Of a DNA stretch of 64,000 nucleotides, positions 2,490 through 63,755 are shown piece after piece. The stretch covers positions 17,546,001 to 17,610,000 of the forward strand of contig CM074518.1 in assembly GCA_037379345.1 (NCBI GenBank). The letters are read 5' to 3'. Within the stretch, counting starts at the first letter, position 1. Every line of letters starts with the position of its first letter. Origin of the DNA: Perna viridis. Taxonomy: Eukaryota. Both the position numbers and the translations under genes were made by a program. The notes under the pieces are model-generated. The model was not told the origin of the DNA and ran no database searches. It saw only the letters and a program-made list of their open reading frames with translations.

Positions 2490-3610
2490 TCTGAAACGGT
2501 ACGTTGATTGTTGACTGTTTGGATCAGTTGGATTCTCTAACTAGAAGAATCGTGTGACATTACGGTCTTCTTTGTCCAGTCTAACATTCAAAAAGGCTTT
2601 TGCGATGTCTGTTGATACACCGTACTTGTGCATCCTGAATTTCAAAATAATTTACGTTATATCGTTTAGTTTAGGAGGGACATCTTGCAGACATTCATTT
2701 AGGCTTGCGGAATTCGGAGTTTGTTTGCAGCTACAGTCATATACTATCCTAAAGGGCGTAGTTGTAGAGTCCTTTTTCACGGGGTGATGGAGAATATCGT
2801 GTAGCTTTGTAGATTGATCCTCGTTGTTTTCATCTATTCTTTCAATGATTCCACGGTTGAGCTGTTCTTGGACGATCTCTCCATACTTTTGTAACAATGT
2901 CGGTTCTTTACTTAAACGTTGGATTACGTTTTCTTTTCTTCGCAAAGCGATAATCTTGTTTGTGGGTAGTGCAGGGTGGTCTGACTTCCATGGAAGTTTA
3001 ACGACATATCTGTTCTTGACGTAGGTTATGCTAGTTTTCTCGTTCTGTTTTCTCATTTCCGATCTCGTTTTTGACTCCTAAGGATTCCAATTCCCAGAAC
3101 TTCTAAAGATTGCATTCTTCTTGATTGTGTGAAATCAATACATTGAAAACTGAGCTGTTTGTTGATTTTGTAGCGTCGGTAATAGGTCCTGATAGTAAAT
3201 AGCCTATTTTGGATTCAACTGCGGTAGGTCCGTTACCTCGTATGATTTCGTTTCCAACGATTTGCCAATAATAGTCGGCTCCAATTAAGAATTAATGTTG
3301 AGGATTCATCTGCTGATGCTGGGTGCGCTAATCTCAATCCTCTAAGGTGTTTCATGTTTACGACAGCAATTGGATGCAATTGTATGTGGACGGCAATTTC
3401 TGGAATGATCAATACGCTTATCGGAATTTTCCCGCCATCAATGGTTTGTAAGTCGACGTCGGCTTTCTTCAAGTGTCGGACTTATCTGCTCTGTTGTTCT
3501 AATCCCGCTAAATGTATCACTTTGGTTCCTGTGCTTTGAAAGTTAAGTTTACTTGCAAATTCCTCTATATGAACGATCATTGTGCACCCTCGTCTAGATG
3601 TTTGCGTCGG
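2490..3610 (-). mobile_element. BEL/Pao LTR retrotransposon remnant, protease/DUF1758 region and N-terminal RT
   Basis: Motifs are LDEGAQ (aspartic-protease-like, ~3580-3600), FWELESLG (~3080-3100), RYVVKLPWK...HHPVKKDSTTTPFRIVYDCS...SLNECL (ORF 2652-3056) and DIAKAFLNV (~2580-2610). The fragment is collinear with 63-1326 and separated from it by ~1.15 kb of unrelated AT-rich DNA. Confidence 0.9.
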
Positions 3611-36800: not shown

Positions 36801-39800
36801 GACAGGAATCAAGTGTACCTTATAAGAATTGACAAGCCATGTGGGTAGTGGGAATCCATGTGATAACAGTTTGACGGCCACACATCTGTGATACTGTGAT
36901 GGTTTCTCCTCATATCTCTCTAAATATCCCTGTAAAAGACTCCATCCCAAGTCTGCTGCACTGCATTATTAAAGTGGAATACAAACATTAACATATTATA
37001 CAACCAACAATAAACTCTATTATCTGGATTAACCGACAATTCAATTTCAATTAAAAAATGTTTTCTAATCCCCTGTCCTAAAGTAAAAAAACATATGTGG
37101 TGGCTGTTTTGTTTTTGTTTTGTATTTTATGTACAATTACTAGATCATCACTGGAGTGCCTGTTTTTCACAATTTTGTTAATGTTGAGTTAGAGTGAGTG
37201 AAATGCATTAAGTCCTATACTTATGTTGAACTATGAAATGGCATTTCAGAAACCAACAGACGACCTGTCAAAACATCCAAAGAGTCACCTTAGACAAGTG
37301 TAAATAACAAGGGTACATCAAACGTTAAAATGATCTTACCTAGAATTCTGAGGTATGTTAGTAAGAGTGAGATTGTTATCCTGTAACCAATCATATGATG
37401 ATGTATCTGTGGCAGTATACATATTAGATCTGGCCAAGTTTACACATCTGAGAGAAACAAAAAATAAACAATTCATTTTGTTTTCACATCTCACTTCAGA
37501 CGGCAGACGAGGAGTCCTGGAAAACCAGAATTCCAATAGTGAATACAAATTTCCCATTATACTAATTTCGTTCTTGAATGCAGTTATCTCCCTTGATCAT
37601 TTCTACTAGTAAAAGGAAGGTATAACAAATGCAAATAACCATTAGAAAATTTTATAAAAAAAAAAAGATTTTATAACAGTTTAAAGTTTTGATGAAACAA
37701 CAAACAAAGTCATTGTTTGAATATTTGACAGGGCCTCAGAAAGTGAGGCTTCTGATGACAAAAATGTTAATATCTATCATGATGGTGATGCTAAAATAGA
37801 TTCTAGAAATTATAAATGATAATAGCAATGATGAAGATGATATATTTGAAGGATTTTTGCCTAAATTAGATTTTAGAATCTTTGAAAATGCCCAACAGAA
37901 CTTTGTTAGATCTACACAATCTTGCCTAAAAAAAAATGAAAACAAGACAAGAATTCGGAGTCCTTCCAAAGTCACTTTTTAGCAAATTTTGTCAATATGT
38001 AATATAGTCAAGGTCATTAGTGAAAGGGTTAAGAACACAATAACAACCTTGTATAACAAATTAATTCTCATAATATAGGAAAACATTAAAGACAAAAAAA
38101 AAATAAATGATGAAAGTGAAATTATAAAAAAATTTCAAATACATGCACTTAGTTTTTTTTTAGTTCTGATAATTAGCTTGATAACAATATGTAACATCTC
38201 ATCTTTTCTTTAAAAACACAACTTTTCTTTTAAGTGTAGTGCAAATAACACATACGAAAATATGGATGTTATCTTAAAAGTTCCTGACACAGATTAACTT
38301 GTAAAGTGTCTACCAAATGATAACTCAGCACTGTGTCAGTCTTTGGTTTAAGTTCATAAGTTGACCAAAAAGAATAATTATTTAAGTTACCTAAAAGTTA
38401 AGCTTTCCATCACAGTATTTAGTTTGATTTTGAACAGCTGACATATGAGGATAGCCCTATCATACAATCCAACATTAACTAACTGTCCCACTATCTCATC
38501 TGCTCCTGATGTAGGACCTGACAAGATAAAGTTATAAATAGTCAAATGATTTTAAGTCAGCATTAGTTTTCTATACCATCTCTCATATAGTATAATTCCT
38601 AAAAAATTCAGTGGATTATAATTTCCTGGCAGTATGCAAAACTATATATACATATCATGTCCTGACTACCTACAAAATTTCACGAAATTTTGTACAGTAG
38701 TTTAAAAGGAATTGTATTTACAAAGGTATGATGGATAGACAGACAGATGGACTGGACAAAACCAATATGTCTCTCCATCAAAGTCGAGGAGACATAATTT
38801 CACAATATCACAGCAGTGAAGAGGATATCTGTAAAATCGGAATTGAATAAGCAGTAAAATATAGATTAACTACAGTTAACTCCAGAATTAAAAACGAGGA
38901 AATCTAGCAAATAGTGGTAAGAAATCATCACTGACTGTAACAATATCAGATGTGTAACTATACCTGGTGTAAAAGACAGTTCTGACTCTTTGTCAATCAG
39001 TCTCAGTCTGGCATCAACCAACATATACTCCTTCTCAATATCTGCTAATTCTACAATCTCTAATTTCTTTGACACTGAATAATGAATAAAAATGAGACCA
39101 GAAATACAAAAGGAAATCCAGAATAACATTTTTGTTTACTCATATTAACAATACTTCTTAATACAAAACTTAAGAAGGTATTACGGGCATTATTCATAGC
39201 AATTTTAAGTTTTTTGGCAAAAATGTTAATCAAATTTTCTCACTTTAGAAAACTACTAATAAGTAATTCAAAATATTCAAAAATGGAACAACTTTTCCAA
39301 ACAATATGAAACCATCTTTTAATAATGAAGTATTTAATATGGAAAACATATTATTACCATATCATTTATATTTATAAATTCATTTGTTACTTTTAAACAT
39401 GTTTCCATGGCGTTCCTAAACAAATGTTGCAATTTTTTGTGTGACGGTTGTTGACAAAAACTAAAAAGATGTATTCTTAACCGCAGTAAATGTCTTATTA
39501 CTAGTTCTATGAAAAATGTAAAAAAAATGTACAGTTTTTATGCATATCATGTTTCAGAGAGTTAAATAAACCCTAGTAAGTACATGTAAGACTTCAAATG
39601 ATAGAAACACAACTGTATTAATGATTACTTACTATGCTCTTCCTTTTCGTCACCATCATGCCATCGTTTAGGAGAATAACCTAACATATCCTCCTGATAT
39701 ACCTACAAAGAGACAAAGTTTGTTGAGGAAGTAGTAGCCATTAAGTACAATTCTGTGTAAGAATCAGGCAATGGGTGGCACATCATAATTTTCAATTTGG

Positions 39801-42800
39801 TCTTTTTTGCCTTAAATATATTCAATACATCCAGTTAAACAACTGAACGGCTATTTAAATTTATCCTGAAGCATCTGTAACATATATATTTTTTGACTGC
39901 TTATATAAGGTTTGTTTGTTTGTTTGTTGGGGTTTAACGTCCGAGCAGCAATATTTCAGCTATATTCAGATGATGAACATGAAATTAATGATAAAATGAA
40001 CATGAAATGATGATGAAAAAGGGATGGGACACAAGGACAATGGGGTCGACAAATTTTGATTGCCACTGGAAATAGGGAGAGGTGGGTAGGGTCGGGCAAT
40101 TTAGCCTCCTGTGGCGGAGCCCTATGGTTCCTACTCCGGGAGAATACCACAGTAGGGTTCTTTAACGTGCGAGGAACAAGGCATCTTTCCCAACGTAGTG
40201 CACCACTATGGTTTGCGGTCAGGTTTTCTGTATTATAGTCGACAACCCCAGCATGTAACACGCCAGGGGTACCCCATTCAACCACCTGGGCACACATCCC
40301 AGTTGCTCTGTGGGCAGAGCACTCTAGCCCCTGGCTAGGGTTCTGAGCACTATTTAGTCGCCTTTTACGACAAGCTTAGCGCTGCTATTCTTTTAACAGC
40401 CTGACCTGCACAGGGCGCTTATATAAGGAAAAAGTGCAGGAAAATTTCCCCGCCATTTTTCATTTCAACTAAATTTGACCTATCAATATCTTGAAAAGGC
40501 AAATGTTACAAACACTTTGACAGTAATTTCTTGAGGTTATGAGGTATAAATACTTGATAAATGCAATAAAATCTCTGTGTATTTTTTCTTCACGTGCCAC
40601 ACCTTATACACATTTTGCCTGATTCTTAGACGGAGAAGTACTTAAAATCTATTTTGCTTTTGATTTCAGGTTGATGTTCCCATCTAAATTTATGCTGTTG
40701 TTTTTTTGTCTCAGGACATATGTCACTTTGAACATAGTTTTTCTTGGCTTCACATGAACATGGTGGTTGCACAAGGGTTAAAATTCAACTTTTCAGAGCA
40801 CACTGCAAAAAATTCAAACAAATATTCATGTAAAGGGTTACTAAGTTATCTTTTCATTTGAATATCTGTTTGACCATGTCCATCAGCTTCGTGGAATTAA
40901 AAAAAAAAACACTTTACATCATGTTGGTAAAACATTTATGAAATAAACTAAAATAAGTGAACAATAAAAGCAATTTTAAAAACTTTTCTTTGATAAGATT
41001 GTGTGCATTTATCCAATTTGTTAAGTTTTTAATCAACTTGTTAAAATCATTAGGTTAAAATATTTTTTTTTAACAGATACCGTTCTCTGTTCTTGTATTT
41101 GCAGTATGGAGAAGCCAAATTTAATATGGATGAAAAAGATGATTTCATAACTTTTTAAAAATTTTTCTTCTTTTTTGTACTAATGGAATAAACATTTAGA
41201 GACCTTAAGTGGAAATTTGGAAGAAGAATGTTTGAATGAAAAAAAAAGATAATATAAGACCAAACCTCAAATGACTGAAGTGAATTATTGTAGTGAAAAA
41301 AGATACTTAAGCACTTTAATTAACTAATTCCAATCAAATTAAGTAATCTGCTGAGTACCTTCTCCAAAAAAAAAAAAAAAAAATTTAAAACATGAAGCCA
41401 TTTCTTCTGAACCACATCCTGAGACAATTGAAGAGTGATTTAAGTACCTTCAATCAGGAAACCAGGCAATTAGGTATGTTTTACCATCTACATGTACAAA
41501 ATCAAAAGAAGATAAATATCAGAAAACAATCATTATTATTTTAATCCCTGAACCCAAACTAACCTTAGGTTTAGGTGACTGTACAGGTTTAACAATCCAA
41601 GCATAGTCAGGCTTGACAAGACGTAATGCATTAATGGCAGCTAAATAGCACTGGGACTGTCTCTCCAAACCTCGTTTACCTGGACATTCTCTACTTAACC
41701 TCATTCCATGCTCGTACATTACACTGCCAGCTAAAAAAAGAGTAAGACTTGTCACATTTAAATAAAAGAATTAACATCTGAAAAAAGTCAATACAGTAAT
41801 GATAATGAAGACATGTAAATTCCCATTCTTTTAACAGACATGATTTTACGAGGTCTACAAAGTGGAAATCAGTGAAATTGGAAGTAAATATACAGTAAAA
41901 AAGAATTGTAAGGGTAAAATCCAGATTTGAAATAGCAGAATTCTCCTAAAAAGCAGAAAAAAAATCATGTCTGCTTTAAATACATGTCCACATACCAGAA
42001 ATTTTTTGTACTCGCATAACCTTTGATTTGGCTACCAAAATCAGCATGTTCACTTGTACTATAATCTATGAAGTCTGTTGAAGAAATCTTGAATCTCAGT
42101 AATTTGAAGTTTCATCAATCAAACCAAGTACATTTAACTAACAATAATTTCAATACCTGTATAAGGGTATATAACCCAGATTACAAGTCATATGTTATGA
42201 ATATCATGCATACCCTTCCTCCAATTACTTTTGTTGACATGGAAAGCATATAAAAGATCATAGTAATTTTGTGTTGTAAGATCTACTGATCTGGCCCTGC
42301 TCTCTAAGATGGAGACAACATCATCCTCTAGATCAACATAGGGAAAGGAAACAATCGACTGGAGATCTCCTCTCTCACTCAAAGTCACAAGCAACTGACG
42401 TAAACAATCCTTCCTCCTAGAAAATTTAAAACTTTCATGTCAAATCAACAGTAAAATTTGCTGTTAAGATGATTTTACAGTGATAGAACTTACATGGAGT
42501 GGGTATACAATTTTTGGAGCAGCAAAATCTTAAAAGATATAAGTAATTTTTAGTATGTAGTTAATCAGAGTGCAAAATAAACATTGCATAAGGTAAAAAA
42601 ATAATTTGTAATTGTACACATATATCAATAACTCCTCTGATTTTTAAGCTTAAATGATTTTGACCATATTACAATATTACATGTACCAATTTTAACTGCT
42701 TTAAATCAGGCTATACCTATCTATGAGATGAGTAATAGCATCTGAGAATAGAACTTGAAACCCTACCTTGATGGGTCAGGATTATCAACCATAGCCTTGT

Positions 42801-45800
42801 ATGCCTCCTCATTATGTTCTAATTCTAATTCATACTTAAATACTTTGGACCACAGTGTAGCCTACAACAGACAAGTCATATTTAATTACTTTGGACCTAA
42901 GTGGAGCCTACAACAGACAAGTCATACTTAAATACCTTGGACCACAGTGTAGCCTATAACAGACAAGTCATACTTAAATACTTTGGACCACAGTGTTGCC
43001 TACAACAGACAAGTCATACTTAAATACCTTGGACCACAGTGCTGCCTACAACAGACAAGTCATACTTAAATACCTTGGACCACAGTGTTGCCTACAACAG
43101 ACAAGTCATACTTAAATACTTTGGACCACAGTGTAGCCTACAACAGACAAGTCAAATTTAATTACTTTGGACCTAAGTGGAGCCTACAACAGACAAGTCA
43201 TACTTAAATACCTTGGACCACAGTGTAGACTACAATAGACAATTCATACTTAAATACCTTGGACCACAGTGTTGCGTACAACAGACAAGACATACTTAAA
43301 TACCATAGACCACAGTGGAGCCTACAACAGACAAGTCATACTTAAATACCTTGGATCACAGTGTAGACTACAATAGACAATTCATACTTAAATACCTTGG
43401 ACCACAGTGAAGCCTACAACAGACAATTCATAATTAAATACCTTGGACCACAGTGTTGCGTACAACAGACAAGACATACTTAAATACCATAGACCACAGT
43501 GGAGCCTACAACAGACAAGTCATACTTAAATACTTTGAACCACAGTGTAATCAAAAACAGACAGTTCACACTTAAATACTTTGGACCAGAGTGTAGCCTA
43601 CAACAGACAATTTATACTTAAATACCTTGGACCACAGTGTAGACTACAATAGACAATTCATACTTAAATACCTTGGACCACAGTGAAGCCACAGGGTAGT
43701 GATATGCGTCTAGTGCAGTAGTGATCGAACGTCTCTAGATCGCTACTGACGCTGGCTAGTCTACTTGTAGACGAAAAGGGGAGCAGCGTAAGCAGAAGCC
43801 TTCCTCTGCCAGTACATAGCCTCTACACTACCAAGACTCCTTCAATTTGCCTCCCCGAGGTAACACACGGTAACTTGGGTCTAGTACTCAAGGCTAACAT
43901 GAAGGGGATCTCGGAGTAACAAGGACCCTAGAAGTGCAGAGTGCAGGCCCACCGGCACGTGGAACATGCCCTGGCTCTCACCAACCTTGCCCCACCTATG
44001 GGTTAAATAGATTGCTGCCTTGTGATGGACTGTTGAGTCAAAGGCTACGGGAGACAACCCAGACAGAAAACGATGGTCAGACTGGGATCAAACCTTTGGA
44101 AGGGAACCTGTCTAGGAGAGGAAATTCTGATATAAAACCCGGCTCGAAAGGAGTCGTCACCCATGGTAGGGAACCTATCTAGGAGAGCAAACTCTGATAC
44201 AAAAGCATGTGAGGGACTTGCTGACCACCACATTAAAATAAAGCTGAAGCTAGAGGGCCAACCCCCCACTAGTGGATACAAATGGTTACAGAAACGATTA
44301 CAGTAAAAGTCATTCCTCGGACTCGTCAACGACTAGAGAAAGAGGACCAAACCAAACATTGAGGACAGCAAATGACGCGAAAGCTGATGAAGTTGTTCTC
44401 ACCAAAACAACCAACAACCATAGGCACTTGGATTGTTAGAACAATGTATCAAAGTGGCAAAAGCTTGCAAATTGCGAACGAAATGGATAGATACAATATC
44501 GAAATTCTAGGACTCAGCAAAGTAAGATGGAATACAGCTGGAATGACAACACTATCTTCAGGTCATACGGTCATATTCTCAGGAAATCCAAATGAAGACG
44601 ACATACATGACAAAGGCATGGGATTCATGCTTACAAAGAAAGCCAAGAAATCGCTTTTGGAGTGGAATCCAATATCTGCAAGAGTGATATCAGCTAGATT
44701 TGACACTCGATTCCAGAAAACAACATTTATACAGGTGTATGCACCAACAAACACCGCAGACGAAGATGATAAAAATGACTTCTACAACCTATTACAATCA
44801 GATGTTGATGCCGTTCCTAAAAGAGACATCTTTATCATCTTAGGAGATCTGAATGCCAAAGTAGGTGATGACAGAGGAGGTAGAGAAAGGGAGATAGGAC
44901 CACATCGAATAGGGCAAATGAATGAGAACGGAGAGATGTTTGCTGACTTTTGCGCTATAAACAGTCTAGTAATTGGCGGTACTTGGTTTCCACATAAATC
45001 TTGTCATAAAACCACCTGGATTTCACCATCTGGAGACACTGAAAACCAAACAGACCACATAACAATAAGCCGTCGATGGAGATTTTCATTACAAGATGTA
45101 CGAACAAAACGTGGAACAGACGCAGCATCAGATCACCACCTTGTAATTGGAAAAATTAAACTCAAGCTTTTAACAACAAAGAAAAGAGAGACTACAAACA
45201 GGAAGTTTAATGTTGAGAAGTTTAAAGATCAGAAAGTGAAAGAAAACTTCCAAATTACACTCAGGAACAGATTTAGTACTTTATTAGATCTTGACAACGA
45301 AGAAATGAACAATGATATTGATGACATCTGGAACTCAACAAAGACAGCCATTCTGGAAGCATGCGAAGAAACAGTTGGTTTCATTCAAGTGAAAAGAAAG
45401 AAATGGATGTCAGATCAAACATGGGATACAATATCTGAAAGAAGGGAAATAAAAGAAAAGTTGACGAGTGCCAAAACCAGACAGCAAAAGAAAAACCTGC
45501 AAGACCTTTACAGCGCAAAAGACAGAGAAGTGAAGAAAAGCTGTAAAAGAGATAAAAGAAACCATGCTGAAAAGTTAGCAGTAGAAGCTGAAAACGCCTG
45601 CTTAAAAGGAGACATCAAAACATTGTATAACATCACAAGACAACTCAGTGGAAAGATCTCTCAAAATGAAAATTTACCAGTCAAAGATAAAAACAACAAT
45701 ACCCTCACAAAGCTAGAAGATCAGCTTGACAGATGGAAAGAACACTTTAGTGAGGTATTGAACAGACCACCACCAACAAATCCACCAATACTTGAAGAAG

Positions 45801-48800
45801 GTCCAACACTTAACATAGAGACTGACAAAATTACCGAAAATGAAGTAAGAAAAGCCCTAAAACATCTTAAGAATGGGAAAGCAGCGGGAATCGATGGCAT
45901 ACCACCAGAAGCCCTCAAGTCCATGAATGACACTACCATTCAATATCTTCTTGGGCTATTAAACCAGATATGGGAAAAAGAAAAAATTCCAAAAGACTGG
46001 CAAAAGGGACTCTTGGTAAAACTACCTAAAAAGGGGGACAAATCCAATTGCAACAACTGGAGGGGAATAACTCTTTAGTCCATTCCTAGTAAAATCTTAT
46101 GCAGTATAATCTTACAAAGAATGAAAGAAGAGACTGATAGCAAGCTGAGAGATGAACAAGCTGGATTTAGACAAGAACTATCATGTGTCGACCAGATTGC
46201 TACACTCAGAATAATTATTGAGCAAACGATCGAATGGCAGTCATCCCTATATCTAAACTTTATTGACTTCCAGAAAGCATTTGACAGCATAGATCATCAG
46301 GTCTTGTGGAACATTCTAGGACACTATGGGATTCCACCTAAGATTATTTCCATGATTAAGTTACTGTATGAAGAATTCTCTTGTCAGGTCATACATGCTG
46401 GTACATTGACAGATCCTTTCCCTGTAACAACTGGCGTAAGGCAAGGATGCATTCTCTCTCCCCTTCTCTTTCTCATAGTCATCGATTGTATAGCAACAAC
46501 AGCTTACAACGACCCTCATGGTATACAATGGACACTAACATCTCGTCCAGAAGACCTCGAATTTGCAGACGACATATGCACACTATCGCATCGTCTTCAA
46601 GATTCCCAACACCAGGTCAACCATCTCGAAGAAACAGCTAAAAGAACAGGATTGTATATCCCACAACAGACAATTCATACTTAAATACCTTGGACCACAG
46701 TGTTGCCTACAACAGACAATTCATAATTAAATACCTTGGACCACAGTGTTGCGTACAACAGACAAGTCATACTTAAATACCTTGGACCACAGTGCTGCCT
46801 ACAACAGACAAGTCATACTTAAATACCTTGGACCACAGTGTTGCCTACAACAGACAAGTCATACTTAAATACCTTGGACCACAGTGTTGCCTACAACAGA
46901 CAATTCATAATTAAATACCTTGGACCACAGTGTTGCCTACAACAGACAATTCATAATTAAATACCTTGGACCACAGTGCTGCCTACAACAGACAAGTCAT
47001 ACTTAAATACCTTGGACCACAGTGTTGCCTACAACAGACAAGTCATACTTAAATACTTTGGACCACAGTGTAGCCTACAACAGACAAGTCAAATTTAATT
47101 ACTTTGGACCTAAGTGGAGCCTACAACAGACAAGTCATACTTAAATACCTTGGACCACAGTGTTGCCTACAACAGACAATTCATAATTAAATACCTTGGA
47201 CCACAGTGTTGCGTACAACAGACAATTCATACTTAAATACCTTGGACCACAGTGCTGCCTACAACAGACAAGTCATACTTAAATACCTTGGACCACAGTG
47301 CTGCCTACTACAGACAAGTCATACTTAAATACCTTGGACCATAGTGTAATCTACAACAGACAAGTCATACTTAAATACTTTGGACCACATTGTAATCTAA
47401 AACAGACAGTTCACATTTAAATACTTTGGACCGCAGTGTAGCCTACAACAGACAATAAATACATCAGTCATACTGTGTAAAGGTCATCTCAAATTCTACA
47501 ACTGCAAATATAGCAGTACACTTTGAAGCTTCCAAGGAAATTTATTATTGTGGACAATTTAATACCATTAAGCTGGAAATTATCACAAGGTTTTGGGAAT
47601 CACAAAAATAAAAGCTCACCAAATTTGAGTCAAGATATTTACATGTAATGTCAATTTCACTGAATCTCAAGATGGAAAAAAAATACTGAAAATTTAACAC
47701 CTCTATTTATAGAGCAAATCATGAAATTTGGCACCCGTGAAAATTACCTGCTATACAGTAGTAAATATATAAACCAGATTAAAGTAAATTAGTATGTCTT
47801 GAAAAGCACCAGCATTTCTCTGACTACAAAATTCCAGGGCAAATCAATAATAATATTTTGCCAAATAAAATCTTATTTACCAGAGATAGAAGCACTAGCC
47901 TGATAGACTGCCAAATAAAAACAGTTAGCATTGTGAAGGACTGGTTAGTATCAAGAAAAATGTAAAAATCTAGATAGAACAAGAATAAAAGTGAGAAAAA
48001 AATGAAGAGTTTGCAACAAATTTTCTTACCATATGAACCTTTTAATTCAAAAATACTATTTTTTTTTTCTATAGAAAATATAGATAGGGAGATTAACCTA
48101 CCACATCTGGGTCATCATCATCAGCAATACTAATGGCTGTTTTAGCAAAAGATACCACAACATCTGGTGCTCCAAACTCCTCAAATTGTTTCAAAACCTG
48201 AAATAAATGAAATATATCCAACTGCTATCAATATGTAAAATATAAAAGAGCTGATACAATTGAGGAATTAAATGATGACTTGTTTTGAAACATGGAAAGT
48301 GCTCTATATCAATGTGACAATAATTTCTTTTCACATGCAACTATTAGCTTGAAGCTAAGGGCCTTCATTTGAGTCACCTCTGTATCAATTGTGAATTTTC
48401 TTTAATGCATATAACAGCACATGATAAGCCTGCCCCTTTTATTAATGTTTCAATTCCAGTAACTCTGAAACTTAGAACTGAATAAAAATGAAACTGAACT
48501 GAAAGTTATGTGTACAAATTATGAAATTGTTTTAAAATCAAGTAACACAACATAAAACTTACCTTCAGATAGAAGAGTACTTCTAACTTTCGCACCTCCT
48601 CCTCATCACTCTGTAGGATAGTTTGATGGAGGAAAGGTTCATGTGCTACACCCTCTCTTGCCTCTGTGAAACATTTTGCAGCTTTCTGAGGCTCACTGAA
48701 ACATAATATAACAGTGGATGCATAAGAGTACAAAATGTTTCTACTCAATTCCTTTGTATCACATTAAATTTGATGTGAATAACGTTTTCAATGTTGTTAG

Positions 48801-54800: not shown

Positions 54801-57800
54801 CCTTATCTTGCAGTCTGAGAGCAGCCAACAACAATATCACAACATCCCTGACTACCCTCAGTCTGGTATCAGCTATCTGCTGTAATGTCTTTGACACAAT
54901 TTCTACTCCTGCAGCACTTGATAATAACCTCTCACACAAGAAATTCTGGTTTGCATTCACATCTGGAAATTAATAATAAAGATTAAATGTTGTACATTAG
55001 AGAAATAATATGTTGAAAGTAAGAAAAAAAACCAACAAATTTTCTCCCTGTAAATTTAATAGTAACTATAATGTACAATGAACAAAACCAATCTATGTGT
55101 TCATGTGTCATAATTTCAGGATAAAATGTTTAATCACTTCTAATAAGCAGAAGAACACCATATTAACCACATATAAACTGTACATACATATAGAAAATTC
55201 CTGATCATATTAATATTGTCAATTTTGATATGCAGTACACATGTTTGAAGGGGTAACCTTTCATCAACAGCATTAGAATTCAATATATAGGACAATATAA
55301 ATCAATCAGTAATTGTATACAATAAGTACTCAAAACCAAAAAACTAATGAAATATAAAGCAAAATCCATCACAGGGAGGTTGAACCATGCATAATTCAAG
55401 GAATGAAGCTTCAGTGTCTTAGGGATTTTGAAATTTGTGACAATAACCTAAGCATATTATGGATTTATTGCCCACATAGTAAATTACAGGTAATATGTAT
55501 GACAATCAGCAAAGGACTGGTGTATTTCTCATAGATACTTGTATGTTTAGGATACAGCTAATTCACATGATCCTTCAAGAAGTGTCCCCATGAAATTCCT
55601 TAACTTCTAAATGGCAATTAAAGTATACACCATTTTGTACAATCTTTTCATTTTTGTTCCATTTTCATCAATTCTAATATATTTATTCCACTTTCATCAA
55701 ATCTTAACAATGCTGACACCACCCATTTTTTTATACCTGAGTCATCCATCATGTATTCTTGGTCCTGTCTGGTCTGGACATCAAGAGTCTGAAGCAGCTC
55801 CCTGAAAGCTGGTTGAAGATGAGAGACAGTCTGTAACAATGCACCTAGAGAATCTGCTGCTGTGGAACAGTCAATCAAACTGAAATACATGTAACAAACT
55901 ACATGTAGAAGGAATTCAGTTATAAAACTTATGCTATGAAAACCTCCTTAACAAGAACAACTACATGTACATACCTAAAGTGTAAGATAACAATGTTACA
56001 GCACAGACATGATTTGTTAGACATACTGATTGTGGCAGGGCTCTAATTACATGTATGTAAAGACAAGTGTTGACTCAGTTCAATGATAATACAAAGAAAA
56101 TCCCTTTATCAGAATTAAATAAAGCCAAAACAAGAAGCAAAGATTTTCAAAGTGAGTGAATAGTTATAAATGTTAAGAGTCAAATGTTTAAAAAAACAAA
56201 ACAAAAACAAAAGTAGGTACCCACTTAGACAAGGTCAGTCAAATGAAAAATGTAGACATTCAAAAACATTAAAACAATTTCTTTTATACAAACCAATACA
56301 AAATTGTGTACAAGTTAAATACTGAGGTTTCTGAACAAATATTCATAATTATATAACAGTAACTTCTGGATTTTCAGTAATCATAATCAGTGCTAAATAA
56401 AGATACATGTACCTAGTGTTAAAGAAAAGTTCGTCAACAATCTGCTCTGCCAAGTTTCTAACATCTTCTTTGAGGGAAATCTGATATTCAAATTGTGATG
56501 TAATGTCTTCAGTTAACTTTCCCTCTATCAACTGCAGGCACATGGATAAGGTACCAATATCATTCTTCAGTGTCATGTCTAAGAAAACAATAATTAGATA
56601 AATGAAGCACTAATGAAGCAGAACTCATTCTGTACCAATGACCATACTTATCTGAATGACTTATTCAATACATGTAAGGTGTAAAACACTCATATTGATT
56701 TAAATCTGACTTCCTTGTGTTGTGTGAATCACCATTAACTTCTGGCATAAATATACATGTATATACATGTACTAACAATGAATACCAAGACTTACCACAT
56801 ATTTTGAAGAAAATATAAGGTTTCTTCATTAGTGGTTGTGTCATCAGTGTTTGATTTCTGACATATATATAAATGTAAATGGTTGGTTTAGACAATTTTT
56901 TAAATTTCCCAAGGTTTAGCTTTGACAGTATTCTTACTTACTCTTAAGTTTAGTTTAGATAGATTTCTAGTTAATTTGAATTAGACAAGTTTTCCTATTT
57001 GGAAGGTTTCTTCGCACCAAAATCCCACCAAAACACCAATCAACCCAAACAGGATAAGATTGTATAACATCAATTTTTTCCTATTTTTTTCTCTAACTTT
57101 TGTTACAATAATCTAAAGGGAAAAATAAGCCAACAATTTTCCTTGTTGGTGTCACTTCTCCAATTTGTCTTTGACAGGGAGAAGTTTGTGTAGTAGATTA
57201 CATAGTTTGTTGTTTGTTGTGGTTTAACGTCCGAGCAGCAATATTTCAGCTATATTCAGACGATGAACATGAAATTGATGATAAAATGAACAAGGGATGG
57301 GACACAAGGACAATGGGGTCGACAAATTTGATTGCCACTGGAAATAGGGAGAGGTGGGTAGGGTCGGGCAATTTAGCCTCATGTGGCGGAGCCCTATGGT
57401 TCCTACTCCGCAAGAATACCACAGTAGGGTTCTTTAACGTGCGAGGAACGTGGCATCTTTCCCAACATGGTGCACCACTATGGTTTGCGGTCAGGTTTTC
57501 CGTATTATGGCCTGACAACCCCAGCATGTAACACGCCAGGGGTACCCGATTCAACCACCTGGGGCACACATCCAAGTTGCTCTATGGGCAAAGCGCCCTA
57601 GCCCCCGGCTAGGGTTCTAAGCACTATTTAGTCGCCTTTTACAACAAGCTTAGCGCTGCTGCAGGCCTATCCTTTTAACACCCGGACCTGCACGGGGCAG
57701 TACATTACATAGAGAAAAATATCAATATTGTTATTTTTCAAACAAAATTTAGTAAAACTTGTCATCAATGTCTAGATTATGCTATAAATAACCCTCAATC

Positions 57801-60800
57801 TGAAGTCCTACCATGCATATCATTATCATCTTGGTCCAGTGTCCAGTGTCCACTACCAAGAAACAAATCTTCTATTCTGTCACATGGTCTAATGTAGCTT
57901 ATACTACCCTATAAAGAATAAAGGCATGTCTTAAATGATTGGCATTAGGACATACACAAATACACAAAAAAACTAACTGTATAAAATTTTATTTCCAACA
58001 ATAGAATTTAACAAAATAGAAGCTGTAAAGAGCTTGAATTGCTCACCTGGCTTCATAAGGAACATTCTATTTTTGTAAAAGCTTCCTTGTTTTTTCTTGG
58101 ATATAAATCCTAACCCTCACATCTAAGGAAAAATCATATCAATTTTCACAAAATTCAGCCCAGTAGTTTCTGAGGAGAAATTTTTTTTATGTAAAAACAT
58201 TAAAAAAAAAAAAAAAATGTTGAAGAAGGGCAGTAACTCCAACATGGATAAACATGTTTACATGGAAAATTGACCACAGATAGATCTCATCATACTAAAC
58301 ATTTTTACACAATGTCAGAATATGGCTAAACCTAATGGTTTTGGTGATTAACTTCTGTCTGACCCCTATGTTCTATTTTCAGTAATGGTGGCCATGTTTT
58401 TCAATGGATCAAAAATCCCCACAACAGTTCTATGCAGAATACCCTGAGAAACATTCATACCAAGTTTGGTTATAGTTGATCTGGTAGTGTCAGCAGAAAA
58501 TTTTTGAAAGAAATAACTTAATAAATAGCAAAAAATGTTGAAAAGGGCAATAACTTCAACAGTTTAACAGAAAAATTTGATCATAGCCTGTCAGACTTAG
58601 GAGATATATGTGAAAAACTTCCGTCCCTATCTTCAAATTTTAGTAACAGTGGCCATGTTTTTTGATGTATCAAAAATCCAAACGCTAATTTAAACAGGAC
58701 ATTCTAAGGAATAATCATTCCAAATTTCATTGAATTCTATTCAATAGTTTCAGAGGAGAAGTTAGGATGACAGACCTGAAGTGATGGACAATGATGACGG
58801 TAGTAATGGACACCAAGTAATGGCAATTAATGGCAATAGCTCACATGGTGTATGTCAGAGAACAAAAATACTGTCAGTTATTAAGGAACAGTATTTATAA
58901 AAATCAGAGGTGATTCATGCATGTAAAAACCCATTTTTATTTCAAATTTACAAACATTTCAGACCACATATCATGTCTTAGGTTGGAATTTCAAGATAAA
59001 AAATATACAGATTGTATATGAAATTGGTGTTAAGCAAGTTATCATTATTGACTTAGTGAGAGATGAAAGTATGGTTTTCTTAAAAATACAGATTTGAATA
59101 CAGAAGGGACTATCATTACGTAAAAATATAGCACATGTAAAAAAATATTGTTTATTAAATGGGTTTTTCTACACCAAGGATCATCTTTACCATAGGCAGT
59201 GTCTGAATATATATGGACTGATACTTAATATAGATAATCCATTCACAATAATCAGAATTTCATACATCCAAAGTTATGACCTTAATATTTAAGTAAGCAT
59301 ATAAAGTTCAATATATTTTTTTTTACCTTTTTAATGACACATATCATTCCAGTAACTGCATCAGCAAAGAGTCCCATCATCCTTGAACCGACCTATGAAT
59401 AGAAATTACAAGCATCTATAAGACCTTGTCTCCATAATTACTTCATAATTAGATAAGCATCAATTATTTTTGTTGTTAAGAAACTTGACTTCCTACAGGA
59501 ATATTGAAGTAAAAACATTGACATTAGGTGAAATTGAGAGAGTTCAAAAGATACACTGACCTAATCTAAATATCAATACATTGGAGTCCAGCATCTTAAA
59601 ATGAGTGCTACACATAGAAATAACAATACATCATACCAAATATTAAAAAAAAATCCATCTATTGATTTCAGAAGAGTTGCCTCCATGATGTCTTGTATTG
59701 TTGGAACATGCTGAAGTCCCATAACTCCAATAAAACTTACCAAATCAAAAGCACATCTGCACTTCATAGAAATACACCACACCAAATACCATAAGAATCT
59801 GACAAGCAGATTCAGAGAAATTGTATCCTCAAAACCTTACAAACTTATGGCTACTATTACCATATCCCTTCCTCTGGGGTCAAAAATATATACTATCCTT
59901 GACAATAGGCATATCTAGTAACACAGTTTAGTCAAGCACTTACTTGTAAGTAGGAACGAAAAACAGCCAAGAATAAAATCTTTATTTTTTAAATTTTTCT
60001 GCATAATTTGGTAAAAAAGGGTGACAACAATCCTTTAAATCAGCTCCATAAAAGTGAATGCAAAATAGATATGATTGTTAGGTTTGGTAATCGCTCTTTT
60101 ATATTTTGATCCAAATGAAAATTGATTATGTTCTTGGAATATCTATCAACAAAGACCCCTGAGAAGTAAATAAATTATTTACCTCCTGATACTGTACACA
60201 ACATGAGTAGAATTTAGACCACTGATCTAACTGTAATTGGTAATAATCTTCCTCTGCTAACTCATTGGCTGAGGCTGCTGTACGAATCTAGAAAATAAAC
60301 AGTGTCATTTATAACCACAATACATAGTTTGTTCTCTTCTTACGACAATGTACAGGAAAAAATTACAGCATTAATGGAACATTAAGTGATAACCTGCCAC
60401 ATAATGGTGAGAAAAGGGAGATGGCGAAATGTTCAAAATGGCGTAACTTGAAAACTACATTTAGGATTTTGCAGAAAATTGAACTTGACCTGTATTTTAA
60501 CAACCATGCAAAGTTAAAAAAAAATAGTTGATCTGATCCCAAGTTGTCATCTGGAAACTGTTGGGGGATGGATGGATAGATGGGACTCGCAACTTTCAGG
60601 AGGGTATCCCATGATACCTGATCACTTTGTGTGCCGGGTTATAAAAAGGACAATTAATGATAATCTCTTTCAAAAATAAGCATTAGGCAATAATGCTTTG
60701 GCACAGGTTTATTATTATTTGTGATGCAGCTCTAGAGATATATAATTCACTTCTAAAATAAATAAGTTTGAAGACCTATTTTCAGCATTAATTTTTTTGA

Positions 60801-63755
60801 ATCAAACAAATTTCTAGAAAATGTTTGTAATATTTCTAAATAATATAAAAATAGAATAGCCTTAATCTATTAGAAAATATTACATAAATACATCTGTAAT
60901 AGGGGAAAATAAGAACCACAACTCACCGCATCCTCTACAGCTAGTGTTACTTCTTCTTTTAAGGAATTAACCTGACCTAAATTGTCAAACATGGAAATGT
61001 TGTCCATTGACCTTTTACAAACCTGAAAAACAGACGCACATTAAATTGAGAGTACCAAGTGCCCTACCAGAACCTACCTAAAGCATCCTGGTAATGGGTG
61101 TGAAATTTTCTAATACTAGATAATACTAATACTATTTTTAGTTTTACGAATCAGCTGACTCTAATTATTTGCAATTTGGAAAAAAAATAAAATGACTCAT
61201 TTCGTTTTTTTTTATAATTTTTTCCAACCGACTCGGTCCTTTGCTGTTTCAAAAAAAATAAAAGGTTAAAGGTTATTGACTATATCTTTAATAGTCTTAA
61301 TCTTTATTGCACTTGAAAGACATAACAGTTTTTATGGTAAAAACCATGTTGTTTACTGTTTTGAATACTTTGAAGCGAAGAGATCTGAACAGTAAGCACA
61401 GGAAAGATGCATTCATGGTCTGCATCGTTGTGTATAATCCTGGTCTTAAAACAATTAAAAACAAATTTAGAAAGGTCCAAACTGATTCTACGATAGGCCA
61501 GACTATATCTGACGAATTAGATCCGGACCTACTAATAGAAAAAATATATGGAAATAGTGCTTACATTCATGGACAGGGCCACAGTACGTTAGTTCCTCCA
61601 CAGAAGTAGCAACTAACTTGCCTGTGGGAGTGATGAGTGAAATGGGGTATAAATACCTATACATTTATTGCTTGACAAATAATAAAAAGAATGTTCAACT
61701 CTATTTCTGTTTAATATTTAGGAAAAAGTGGGAAAAAAGAAGGCAGGTCCTAGAACCTTGTGGGCAGAATATCAACACATTATTTTAAAATGGTTGAAAC
61801 AATGTCAGACAGAAAGAAAACAACACAATTTCCAATGCACAAACACAAATTCAACCTATTTTGTCTTAAAACCATATTAAATACGTTCAGAAAAGTATTA
61901 TCTTTAACAAACAAAAAAAAAATCTTAAAAAATAAAAAAAAAATTCCAAAATGTCTCTCTCTCTTTTTTTTTTTTTATTTCATCCTCCTACTCATGACTT
62001 TGGTGAAATAATTTTGTAAAACTAAAAATTAAAAAACAATGGCCTTATCTCATTCAAACCCATCAAGACAGTTCAGTTACGGGGAGAAAACAATAGATAG
62101 GGACAGACAGAAAGCTGAATTCTGTAACCTCCACTTAAGAGAAAGGTGTAAAATAAGTTAAAACCCTTGAATATATACGTACATTTAAAGCCTTTTGTAT
62201 GTCTTGTAAATTGAACCTTCCAGGTTGAAAGATATGTTGTATGTAGACTTCTCTAGGATCCTTGTGAGCAGGAACTAATAATTCATCACCCTCTGGTGTT
62301 TCTAAAATTATATCTGTCCAACCAATACCCTTCAGGTCCCTGAAGATAAATTTTCAGACATTTTGTAAACCTTATGTACATGTTTGATCTAAAATTTGAA
62401 TATTAATTTTAAGTACCACATACATTTAACTTTAAATTTATTTGCTTACAGTGACACACTAGAGGTACACTGTCAAGCAGACATATAAAAAACCAACAAT
62501 TCATAAAGGCAGGATGTCTGAAATTTCTATTAAACCAAAAAATATGAAGATATCTAAATTTAGACATGCCTTTGGTGAGCTGAAAAAAAAACCTGAGAAG
62601 ATTTGGAAAAGAGCTGAAACAGGGGAATTAGTCTGGCAAAAACATCATTTTCAAGCTGCTCATACAAAATCCAGCACGTGTTGATTTTTTGTTTCTGAAT
62701 CTAGCTTTAAAGCAGAAGAAAATCATGCCTGCTAAGACTACAACTGGTGAAGGCAGAACAACATTAATAAATCAGTACCTCAGTCTAGCGATGCTTTCCC
62801 CAGATTTATCTGTACATAGTACCATAAGTTGTTCATCTGTAGAACAGTAGTCTATCAAATCATCCTGGAAAGAAGCAAAACAACAAATGTAAAAAAGTCA
62901 ATCAAGTGAATCGAGTAAAAGTTTCCGTTATAACAGTGAAAATACTTTTATGCAAGAATAAATATATTTAATGTGCATACTGTTAAAATATGATAATCTC
63001 ATTTGATAATTGGTTTTTACATGTGAGGTTTCATGAGTAGATCAAACACATCTTCGAGCTTTTTATACAGGCCACACCTTCAATAAATGGACTATTTTTA
63101 TTACAGTAATTTGCATATTTGCTATGACTATGTAAAATGTTGCATTGTACAATAGGAGAAACATATGAAATGTTATTTTTAGAAATGAATGTTTCATTTT
63201 TGATGTTTCATCAGCTTGTAAAAGCTTTGACAAGTCACACATTTTGGACATGATAGAGAACTTTATAGAAAATGTGCTGGGGTCAACACTTTTACACCAT
63301 GATGAAACATCCAAAATGAAACATTCAATTATTAACACAGGTAATAATTTTTTTGTGAGTTAAGGATTTAAGATGCAGCAGGGTTCACCTGTAATAAAGA
63401 GGTCAATACTACAATCTAAAGAGGTCTTATTAATAGATATGGAAAGGATGGCTTCAAGTCGAAGAGGGAGGAACGAACATGTAGTTTCACCACAATCCAA
63501 CTCTAAGATTGGGTATATGATGTCACTTGTAATTTTTCATCATTGCTGAAAAACAATTGTCAGTTCACTTCTTTCTTTGCATTCAATCTAGAAGAAAAGC
63601 GCAAGCACAAGAAAAAAATATCCATTCCTTCCTTTCATCGATTTTTACATAGGATGTTACTTTAACAACAATTGTATTACCTCACTTCCATGAACAGTAG
63701 CTGCATGATAAATTTGTAGTCTTCCTCCAGCCATGTGTGGTTCTAAGTATACATA
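33767..63755 (-). CDS. NUP160: Nuclear pore complex protein Nup160, 27 exons; 5' part outside the window
   Basis: The exons join in one frame (3234 nt). Diagnostic segments that I recognise from vertebrate NUP160 are DPREVYIQHIFQPGRF, WSKFYSCCVQYQE, LWP...FPEFLMKTCQYLPLQQY...WC....HRFMLG, DCLRQLLVTLSER...FPYVDL...ILESRARSVDL..NYYDLLYAFH...RKAGSVMYEHGMRL, CYLAAINALRLVKPDYAWIVKP, SPKRWHDG, LPTWLVNSYK and WLPYTYIDQLL. Confidence 0.95.
34407..34508 (-). CDS. NUP160: NUP160 exon
   Basis: GCVSHRAQTSWLPYTYIDQLLHGLKDCRNGRACE. Confidence 0.9.
35351..35488 (-). CDS. NUP160: NUP160 exon
   Basis: KLNMSELLKIYIDFDLLEDGVILTMEYIDAV...FGLK. Confidence 0.9.
36569..36672. repeat. 21-bp minisatellite (ATAACTGCAGGATGCCAGGCT x5), intronic
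   Basis: Tandem copies are directly visible. Confidence 0.95.
36819..36960 (-). CDS. NUP160: NUP160 exon
   Basis: AADLGWSLLQGYLERY...GFPLPTWLVNSYK. Confidence 0.95.
37340..37447 (-). CDS. NUP160: NUP160 exon
   Basis: CVNLARSNMYTATDTSSYDWLQDNNLTLTNIPQNS. Confidence 0.9.
38391..38517 (-). CDS. NUP160: NUP160 exon
   Basis: PTSGADEIVGQLVNVGLYDRAILICQLFKIKLNTVMESLTF. Confidence 0.9.
38964..39074 (-). CDS. NUP160: NUP160 exon
   Basis: SKKLEIVELADIEKEYMLVDARLRLIDKESELSFTP. Confidence 0.9.
39633..39702 (-). CDS. NUP160: NUP160 exon
   Basis: VYQEDMLGYSPKRWHDGDEKEEH. Confidence 0.9.
39911..40416 (-). mobile_element. ~500-bp non-autonomous retroposon (SINE-like), copy 1
   Basis: A 12-bp TSD GCTTATATAAGG lies at 39899-39910 and 40417-40428. 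The minus-strand 3' end is GCTGAAATATTGCTGCTCGGACGTTAAACCCC(AAAC)n. It is highly similar to 57206-57698. Confidence 0.9.
41564..41730 (-). CDS. NUP160: NUP160 exon
   Basis: GSVMYEHGMRLSRE...CYLAAINALRLVKPDYAWIVKPVQSPKPK. Confidence 0.95.
42214..42416 (-). CDS. NUP160: NUP160 exon
   Basis: RKDCLRQLLVTLSERG...NYYDLLYAFHVNKSNWRK. Confidence 0.95.
42767..42861 (-). CDS. NUP160: NUP160 exon (its acceptor is the unit of the 46-bp array)
   Basis: ATLWSKVFKYELELEHNEEAYKAMVDNPDPS. Confidence 0.9.
42832..43690. repeat. 46-bp minisatellite, left block (~18 units), containing the NUP160 3' splice site
   Basis: The unit is CTTAAATAC(C/T)TTGGACCACAGTGT(A/T)GCCTACAACAGACAAGTCATA. Confidence 0.97.
43691..46662 (+). 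mobile_element. RTE-clade non-LTR retrotransposon (APE endonuclease + RT); 5' UTR present, 3'-truncated, inactive
   Basis: ORF 44372-46078 has APE motifs (TIGTW.VRT, ILGLS.VRW, IQVYAPT, LGDLNAKVG, SDHHLV). It continues in the same frame past one TAG into RT (QAGFR, NFIDFQKAFDS, GVRQGCILSPLLF, FADD) and stops abruptly at ...KRTGLYI. Confidence 0.93.
43704..43907 (+). ncRNA. Degenerate HDV-like (CPEB3/delta-family) ribozyme fold in the LINE 5' UTR
   Basis: P2 CTCCTTCA/TGAAGGGG; P3 GCC/GGT; L3 TCCCCGA; P1.1 GG; P4 CTTGGGT/ACTCAAG; J4/2 GCTAA. P1 pairing is mismatched in this copy. Confidence 0.6.
46663..47456. repeat. 46-bp minisatellite, right block (~17 units)
   Basis: The same unit resumes directly after the truncated LINE. 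Confidence 0.97.
47471..47760. mobile_element. TA-flanked MITE-like element (TACTGT...ACAGTA)
   Basis: The termini TACTGTGTAAAGGT / ACCTGCTATACAGTA are imperfectly complementary. Confidence 0.45.
48102..48197 (-). CDS. NUP160: NUP160 exon
   Basis: VLKQFEEFGAPDVVVSFAKTAISIADDDDPDV. Confidence 0.9.
48563..48695 (-). CDS. NUP160: NUP160 exon
   Basis: EPQKAAKCFTEAREGVAHEPFL...LFYLK. Confidence 0.9.
49557..49712 (-). CDS. NUP160: NUP160 exon
   Basis: WPMNESFTFPEFLMKTCQYLPLQQYVNQLSIWCEMNAASHRFMLGMAYLHF. Confidence 0.9.
49827..50004. mobile_element. TA-flanked MITE of the same family as 29205-29947
   Basis: TACTGTGAAAG...CTTTCACAGTA TIR. Confidence 0.7.
50392..50545. repeat. Degenerate minisatellite (CAACTCTA.TTCCTGAAGT.AA.TG, ~4 units)
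   Basis: Repeated cores are visible at ~50393, 50454, 50488 and 50523. Confidence 0.7.
50595..50751 (-). CDS. NUP160: NUP160 exon (followed by a U12-type donor)
   Basis: SQNVTITELFLMDVGG...LAKFTAQL; donor TT|gtatccttt. Confidence 0.85.
51147..52818. repeat. 41-bp minisatellite, ~40 copies, intronic
   Basis: The unit is CCTCAGTACTGATATTAGTGACAGGTGTTTTCTAGTGGCTA. Confidence 0.97.
52936..53003 (-). CDS. NUP160: NUP160 exon
   Basis: EFNMRQLASLELGQGYIGTQKG. Confidence 0.9.
53677..53922. repeat. 41-bp minisatellite x6 containing a NUP160 5' splice site
   Basis: The unit (minus strand) is TGTGGCAAGCTCCACCTATACCAGCTCAAT|gtaagattctt. Confidence 0.97.
53893..54026 (-). CDS. NUP160: NUP160 exon
   Basis: IGINQGTADEIVHEFIPQSCTMVQSYITLKWTTETVASSTYTSS. 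Confidence 0.9.
54689..54808. repeat. 30/31-bp minisatellite x4 containing a NUP160 5' splice site
   Basis: The unit (minus strand) is GATAAG|gttagcaggg(a/g)tttcattat. Confidence 0.95.
54802..54962 (-). CDS. NUP160: NUP160 exon
   Basis: VNANQNFLCERLLSSAAGVEIVSKTLQQIADTRLRVVRDVVILLLAALRLQDK. Confidence 0.9.
55737..55879 (-). CDS. NUP160: NUP160 exon
   Basis: LIDCSTAADSLGALLQ...QEYMMDDS. Confidence 0.85.
56413..56578 (-). CDS. NUP160: NUP160 exon
   Basis: MTLKNDIGTLSMCLQLIEGKL...AEQIVDELFFNT. Confidence 0.85.
57206..57698 (-). mobile_element. ~500-bp non-autonomous retroposon (SINE-like), copy 2
   Basis: A 14-bp TSD AGTA(G/C)ATTACATAG lies at 57192-57205 and 57699-57712. It has the same 5' end, body and AAC-rich tail as copy 1. 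Confidence 0.9.
57812..57908 (-). CDS. NUP160: NUP160 exon
   Basis: GSISYIRPCDRIEDLFLGSGHWTLDQDDNDMH. Confidence 0.85.
58010..58850 (-). mobile_element. HINE/Helentron-like repeat with internal tandem units
   Basis: It has GCTCACCTGG ... GGCAATAGCTCACATGG subterminal motifs. Repeated AAAAATGTTGAA.AAGGGCA.TAACT.CAAC (58215, 58532) and GTGGCCATGTTTTT...ATCAAAAATCC (58388, 58649) occur inside. Confidence 0.55.
59327..59392 (-). CDS. NUP160: NUP160 exon
   Basis: VGSRMMGLFADAVTGMICVIKK. Confidence 0.85.
60183..60287 (-). CDS. NUP160: NUP160 exon
   Basis: IRTAASANELAEEDYYQLQLDQWSKFYSCCVQYQE. Confidence 0.9.
60927..61022 (-). CDS. NUP160: NUP160 exon
   Basis: VCKRSMDNISMFDNLGQVNSLKEEVTLAVEDA. 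Confidence 0.9.
62183..62339 (-). CDS. NUP160: NUP160 exon
   Basis: DLKGIGWTDII...KDPREVYIQHIFQPGRFNLQDIQKALN. Confidence 0.9.
62779..62864 (-). CDS. NUP160: NUP160 exon
   Basis: DDLIDYCSTDEQLMVLCTDKSGESIARL. Confidence 0.8.
63681..63755 (-). CDS. NUP160: NUP160 exon
   Basis: YVYLEPHMAGGRLQIYHAATVHGSE; cag|...|gtaata. Confidence 0.7.

Follow-up and report, generated by a model that had tools for sequence, protein, structure and literature searches.

A pseudoknotted head common to LP-SINEs, a LINE and viral contigs: a candidate exoribonuclease-resistant RNA

SINEs of one Perna viridis family begin with a compact fold that recurs in the heads of other SINEs, at the 5′ end of a complete LINE and in viral contigs, and covariation across these families supports a real pseudoknot under RNA-level selection. 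The class of SINE is known; the RNA module in its head appears to be real, structured and undescribed. Two copies of the element lie in the window, by which we mean the whole stretch of DNA that was analysed (64,000 nucleotides; positions 17,546,001 to 17,610,000 of contig CM074518.1, assembly GCA_037379345.1). As to function, we lean, with somewhat less than even confidence, towards a block to 5′-3′ exoribonucleases, similar to that of the xrRNAs, which would fix or protect the 5′ end of the transcript.

Copies in the window and the LP-SINE family

Copy 2, an LP-SINE-type element of 493 bp (57206..57698, minus strand), is bounded by 14-bp target-site duplications (TSDs), the 5′ copy at 57699..57712 and the 3′ copy, with one mismatch, at 57192..57205. 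Reading on the same strand, its body includes the motif GCACGTTAAAGAACCC (57427..57442), which, on comparison by eye with Lottia_Nin and Lsa_Nin (supplement 4 of PMC4758252), matches the final part of the Nin-type body domain of SINEs, followed by a LINE-related tail (57221..57256) that aligns with the 3′ end of a LINE at L281 (0/2000 shuffles) and by a (CAAA)n-type terminal repeat (57206..57220). Copy 1 (39911..40416, minus strand) lies between exact 12-bp TSDs (40417-40428 and 39899-39910); the two copies are 89% identical, and the element is about 490 bp long. An earlier, sequence-only reading had held that both TSD-flanked copies share a start base and that the TSDs and an (AAAC)n tail mark a LINE-mobilised, SINE-like element. 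Both copies do begin at the same G, end in (CAAA)n and carry TSDs of 12 and 14 bp, and the tail match to the L281 LINE supports mobilisation. The same reading placed both copies sense to NUP160. For copy 2 this holds, given propeller exons mapped at 60174-60278 and 62156-62353 on the minus strand, at least 2.5 kb upstream of it, but the orientation is uninformative in a family of thousands.

Other repeats also occupy the window: minisatellites with 41-bp and 46-bp units (51024-~53000, 42700-43800 and 46500-47600, the 46-bp unit occurring in two blocks), a pair of inverted segments of about 480 bp each that are 66% identical (1783-2258 and 4142-4599), and MITE-type inverted-repeat pairs at 23308-23533, 63178-63335 and 39741-40645, the last of which surrounds SINE copy 1.

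Across the 723-Mb genome, a 30-nt head pattern has 5,904 exact matches, a lower bound for the family, and its reversed control has 0. Exact TSDs of at least 7 nt flank 23 of the 30 top loci, where the TSD usually abuts nucleotide +1 directly. This base is G in 102 of 131 distinct heads (from loci chosen by head queries), whereas the sequence is random at the four positions upstream. Dense SINE nests were seen at L027, L030, L010 and L270, with some copies inserted in others—at L030, one copy with its TSD lies inside another—and a tandem array of ~56-bp units containing the SINE tail motif lies at G000:C13:7999344-7999819.

LP-SINEs, for ‘LINE promoter’, are a described class of mollusc SINEs in which the opening ~70 bp derive from Nimb and RTE LINE 5′ ends; the ~70-bp head is present in Nimb-17_LMi, I-3_DR and RTE-9_CPB (Matetovici 2016, PMC4758252). 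We assign the present element to this class: it too is a mollusc SINE with a LINE-derived head of ~70 bp, variable TSDs (at the top loci and at both window copies), a tandem-repeat end and a tail held in common with a LINE 3′ end, that of L281. Homology to the Nimb-17/I-3/RTE-9 head was judged from the scallop ‘Nimb-17 homology’ rows, by eye, and from the L281 LINE head; again by eye, scallop LP-SINE heads (PMC4758252, fig. S2) agree with the present head in their C-rich start, in the linker and in the TCGTAAGAGGCGACTAA core. A Nin-type motif, as in copy 2, has its counterpart in the oyster Sgl_LP, which carries a partial Nin domain (PMC4758252). In the abstract, section 10 and part 1 of supplement 4 of that paper, neither a pseudoknot nor viral copies are mentioned.

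By its features the element falls outside the tRNA- and 5S-derived SINEs (SINE2/SINE3), which are recognised by A and B boxes or a tRNA- or 5S-like head: ARAGORN found no tRNA in the element, the window copy had no Rfam match at E<=10, and no B box occurred within one mismatch in the first 260 nt when the consensus A- and B-box patterns were scored. The claim that convincing A and B boxes are lacking therefore stands for the B box and for any tRNA, and needs amending for one A-box-like match with one mismatch at element nt ~142 (57547-57557, minus strand), which is not accompanied by a B box. This stretch could be what is left of a tRNA head that stood behind the LINE-derived one, comparable to the scallop MESC SINEs.

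A complete autonomous LINE (L250/L281) starts with this head, in keeping with the proposal that the SINE borrowed its head from a LINE. Its ORF2 encodes an endonuclease (APE), reverse transcriptase and RNase H, its ORF1 has a weak zinc knuckle, and it sits in animal-like DNA within a bivalve-symbiont scaffold. A young 6.07-kb LINE of the P. viridis genome, with a 1247-aa ORF2, belongs to the same clade as L281 (RT segment 71% identical) but bears another head, in which a loose descriptor fits an HDV-like topology beginning at the first base (L272). Since LINEs of one clade differ in their heads, heads have apparently been exchanged between related LINEs, and the present one looks like an exchangeable 5′-end module. 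The SINE tail is less similar to this young LINE (49/2000 shuffles) than to L281. The young family is represented at L267:2053-8129 and 14 other loci (L266-L280) by copies ~99% identical, many with ORF2 intact, and the HDV-like topology of its first ~60 nt has a C-rich P1 5′ strand. In this genome the partner LINE that moves the SINE was not found with three exclusion patterns, which gave only mutated or truncated SINE copies (19, 1 and 43 matches, of which 19, 1 and 30 loci were inspected), nor with a LINE protein search in which 150 of 5315 candidates were scored.

The head fold and its covariation

The conserved structured head comprises nt 1-79 of the element (57620..57698 in copy 2; this and the parts that follow are on the minus strand) and is common to other SINEs, a LINE and viruses. 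Its first stem, P1 (CCCG/CGGG, 57681..57696), encloses one unpaired U and the 7-nt 5′ strand of P2 (57685-57691). An A-rich linker, L3 (57668..57680), leads to the P2 3′ strand, GGCCTGC (57661..57667), which pairs with the P1 loop and closes the pseudoknot. Downstream, a stem with an internal loop, P3 (57620..57657), encloses a sequence-invariant hairpin (57631-57645) with the loop UAARAGG, then UAA. The 5′ part of L3 varies in length and tolerates long insertions (L133), while its last six nucleotides are conserved and AGAAUA stays adjacent to P2; P3 differs between families in sequence and register, and in some viral copies it is weak. Two changes are private to copy 2: GGATA for the family's GAATA in the linker (hence AGGATA rather than AGAATA) and TTG for the family's TCG in the core.

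These parts had largely been anticipated: the CCCG/CGGG stem, the 7-bp GCAGGTC/GGCCTGC pairing and the downstream stem with its internal loop are all present in copy 2. Extended to copy 1, the description fails, as 8 nt are missing there, including the GGCCTGC strand, and P1 is altered at three positions, so that only copy 2 can form the pseudoknot. A further hairpin read as GCTCTG/CAGAGC is absent from copy 2, where the sequence is GCTTTG...TAGAGC, and the structured head, proposed to span the first ~140 nt, shrinks to nt 1-79 when compared across species, both later hairpins being family-specific.

Covariation within this genome is thin: 63 fetched heads have one common P2, with an A-U to G-C change only in an older subfamily. 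Support for the fold comes from other families. We compared 21 rows aligned by sequence only (one representative per family, two copies from this genome and six viral copies), retaining L196, L081, L250 and L230 even though they were truncated or misaligned. P2 was paired in 82.5% of cells, against 60.6% in shuffles (0/500); all 7 of its pairs showed double-sided changes, a result reached by 10/500 shuffles; and its covariation score was 0.573, against 0.220 when shuffled (0/500) and at most 0.186 in slid controls. P1 varied little, with 89% of cells paired and double-sided change in 2 of 4 pairs. A positional rule blind to pairing, applied to 19 of 20 chosen families (family M, L230, was left out because its anchor failed), produced 93 Watson-Crick pairs where the null maximum was 77 (0/100000 permutations). 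The H-type pseudoknot that had been proposed, with a covariation check as its test, is thus supported as a real structure under RNA-level selection. Nested folding gave z = -1.1 for head nt 1-139 and values from -1.94 to +0.40 over all heads, none of them significant; as only nested structures were folded, these scores neither support nor oppose the pseudoknot.

The terminal hairpin showed no variation and no covariation in this alignment. The set had been gathered by the core motif, that is, by this hairpin, so its conservation is partly selected; looser patterns recovered no true hairpin variants from the viral collection. The loop UAARAGG has the layout U-n-n-R-A plus two bases, which we take to be that of a T-loop, and the hairpin may be T-loop-like.

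Where the element begins is tied to P1. In several families the 5′ boundary lies one base ahead of the 5-bp P1 register, and the offset is identical in four other family patterns, one of which has a long L3 insertion. The base at +1 is a purine in every retroposon family examined. At the host locus L103:1370-1520, two divergent heads stand in tandem, 74 nt apart, each keeping P2.

Occurrence in viral contigs and prokaryotic records

Six scans of viral contigs found the full fold in 7 contigs, 6 of them distinct (L081 and L083 are near-identical). An RdRP is encoded in three of these: L082/L209 has RdRP_3 and a nodavirus-type capsid, L084 has RdRP_3, and L207 has RdRP_4. L081 and L083 encode a Peptidase_A21 capsid, and L320 encodes an S-domain coat protein beside a long ORF without a Pfam match. 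In these five the fold is on the coding strand, with P1 starting 6, 11, 24, 74 and 101 nt past the last stop codon, and lies 30-122 nt from the contig end. In the 3′ UTR of L320 the fold occurs twice in tandem; the two copies have diverged, P2 is kept in both, and the contig breaks off within the second. The remaining contig, L206, is a 212-kb DNA virus contig in which the fold, with a perfect P2, occurs between two ORFs (2979-3062), ~130 nt upstream of one of more than 950 aa that has no Pfam match. Further viral matches, at L208, L212, L313, L315 and L319, lacked the pseudoknot and were set aside as chance. A readthrough signal was also considered and rejected, the fold lying 6-11 nt past the stop codon in two viruses but 24-101 nt past it in three others.

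The core motif matched at least 120 metagenome loci, mostly SINE-like copies from a few animal families. We reject an occurrence in prokaryotes: 43 matches in prokaryotic contigs are close to the number expected by chance (estimated at ~50), the 5 with the full motif all lie in eukaryote-looking DNA (microsatellites, GC shift, SINE tail, LINE), and of the other 38 a strict descriptor accepted 3, which is its chance rate. The eukaryote-like DNA in prokaryotic genome records (L224, L230, L233, L248 and L250, with SINEs, microsatellites and a whole LINE) is contamination or the product of chimeric contigs.

The viral copies bear on whether the head needs to be an RNA at all. Since three contigs carry an RdRP, the copies in them have no DNA phase, and these occurrences, together with the double-sided changes in P2, require that the fold act as RNA, beyond any DNA promoter. 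That the head is a DNA-level internal Pol II promoter and nothing else, its fold incidental, would account for the purine start and for the 5′-terminal place of the head in LINEs and SINEs. A promoter role has been proposed for the LP head by analogy with the Pr77 promoter/ribozyme, promoter activity itself being a proposal (PMC4758252, section 10), and Pr77 is a precedent for promoter and RNA role together (PMC3383444). Nevertheless, double-sided changes in every P2 pair and RdRP-bearing contigs demand selection on the RNA, which makes a promoter-only role highly improbable; a promoter may overlap the fold.

Possible functions of the head

Expression was assessed from three raw RNA-seq runs of one study with the same species label, assuming the usual stranded protocol. 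Depth in the element's sense was ~2-4 times that of the antisense. Within the final 25 nt at the 5′ end, sense depth fell by 25%, 47% and 33% and antisense depth by 16%, 15% and 11%. Such a taper fits a discrete RNA starting at the head, and also stalling of reverse transcriptase; none of the three runs showed a pile-up of read starts at the head. Hundreds of reads per run extend from +1 into unrelated flank, from which we conclude that embedded, uncut copies are common. Separately, the tail (57212-57265) had about twice the depth of the body, and at 57263 many reads depart from the element; this tail is also present in short 5′-truncated copies or in other families.

Self-cleavage, by an undescribed class of ribozyme cutting just 5′ of +1, is in our judgement unlikely. 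HDV-like ribozymes lie at the 5′ ends of R1, R2 and R4 as well as RTE, Ingi and LOA LINEs (PMC5786205), and those of LINEs, among them Pr77/L1TcRz, are like the present head in being short modules at the exact 5′ terminus that are common to otherwise unrelated LINEs and to non-autonomous partners. This LINE precedent, as seen in R2, RTE and ingi/L1Tc, is joined by the exactness of the boundary, with the TSD usually abutting it; by the position of all conserved structure 3′ of that boundary; by the invariant core; and by the sister LINE, which has its HDV-like topology in the same place. Linear RNA viruses, too, can carry ribozymes in their UTRs, in exceptional cases in the 3′ UTR (PMC13725137). 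Against these points, cutting would cost a linear viral genome its 3′ end, the tandem heads of L103 and L320 would sever each other, viruses do not conserve the base next to which the cut would fall, and in run X21 ~520 reads pass from +1 into unrelated flank, above the antisense depth of ~280, so that by a rough bound many sense RNAs cross the site uncut.

The head also departs from the known ribozymes in structure. It differs from LINE HDV-like ribozymes in having no nested double pseudoknot from +1, and the loose descriptor found no P1 at +1 in the SINE head from which the nested P1/P2/P3/P1.1/P4 arrangement could be built. The CUGANGA and GAAA motifs of the hammerhead core are both absent from L002. 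Rfam gave no match when the window, the whole element and the head of L272 were searched; for the window copy this holds at E<=10 and covers the hammerhead and the family models of twister, twister sister, pistol and hatchet, whose divergent variants could escape, and none of 12 matches at E<=5 across 5 viral and 3 host loci fell on the motif. The observation that the fold is unlike hammerhead and HDV is therefore borne out, and for twister it agrees with the Rfam result. Of the suggestion that the head is a LINE-borrowed module acting through self-cleavage or an internal Pol II promoter, the borrowing survives, self-cleavage is weakened, and the promoter as sole role is contradicted by the viral copies and the covariation.

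With the xrRNAs the fold has in common a pseudoknot-dependent structure in viral 3′ UTRs. In class 3 xrRNAs (Solemoviridae/Tombusviridae and ST9a), a pseudoknot occurs together with a T-loop; like the present fold, these RNAs are compact and placed early in the viral 3′ UTR (PMC12397905). In contrast to the descriptions of classes 1-3, the present fold has a simple H-type pseudoknot on its 5′ side and then, as a separate domain, a stem-loop, without a three-way junction; it also lacks the coremin sequence (PMC10520033) and any Rfam match to these classes. The xrRNA passages of PMC12397905 and PMC10520033 report no xrRNA in a retroposon. Neither the fold nor its viral copies were found in Rfam or, judged from listings, in the literature, a scope that leaves out Repbase, Dfam and most subscription papers.

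If the fold is an exoribonuclease roadblock, it would stop XRN1/XRN2 at nt +1 as they trim read-through or uncapped retroposon transcripts; alternatively, it would protect a transcript that already begins at +1. Docking of the invariant hairpin on the pseudoknot would brace the 5′ end, and the protected full-length RNA would be a stable template that an I/Nimb-type LINE protein could copy by target-primed reverse transcription. In viruses, the same fold would leave a non-coding 3′ subgenomic RNA. We favour this roadblock reading because one function fits retroposon 5′ ends, viral 3′-UTR starts and tandem copies alike. It gains support from a 5′ boundary that tracks P1 and not the invariant core, and from the tandem copies at L320 and L103, each of which keeps P2. 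Tandem copies are typical of flavivirus xrRNAs. The reading is weakened by a topology unlike classes 1-3, with the ring-forming tertiary contact putative; by the invariance of the hairpin, which shows no covariation and could equally be a protein-binding site; by the lack of a read-start pile-up, with a taper that could be reverse-transcriptase stalling; and by the small number of viral sequences, 6 distinct ones. The purine at +1, unconserved in viral copies, fits transcription initiation better than a nuclease stop.

This last point leads to another explanation, in which the fold is a protein-binding element for translation or RNP assembly—3′-CITE-like in viruses, initiation- or ribosome-binding in LINEs and SINEs—and the 5′ end is set separately by initiation at a purine. 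It would explain why the sequence of hairpin and linker is invariant and why a purine stands at +1 in all retroposon families examined, and it suits both the ~130 nt between the fold and the long ORF in L206 and the position near the 3′-UTR start in small RdRP_3 viruses. Tombusvirid 3′ CITEs lie near the 3′-UTR start. Yet a protein-binding element leaves unexplained a boundary locked to P1 despite L3 changes of tens of nucleotides; SINEs are non-coding; and 3′ CITEs are described as plant-virus-specific (PMC12397905). We regard it as improbable, though as the main rival. The roadblock reading can be carried further, to a new class of exoribonuclease-resistant RNA that has moved among RNA viruses, a DNA virus and animal LINEs and SINEs and gives retroposons precise, protected 5′ ends by nuclease trimming without a Pol III promoter or ribozyme, which would make it a cellular xrRNA spread over the genome in thousands of copies; this wider proposal is possible, though on balance we doubt it.

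The head bears on how 5′ ends are defined in LINEs and SINEs without tRNA heads, for which the 2016 paper proposed a promoter. If it blocks Xrn1, it would represent an additional class of xrRNA, extending these RNAs from viruses to host retroposons, as well as a third way for retroposons to obtain their 5′ ends, and it would mean that host introns and UTRs contain thousands of potential decay roadblocks. If instead it cleaves, it would be a new ribozyme class. Either way, retroposons and viruses have in common a structured RNA family for which Rfam has no model.
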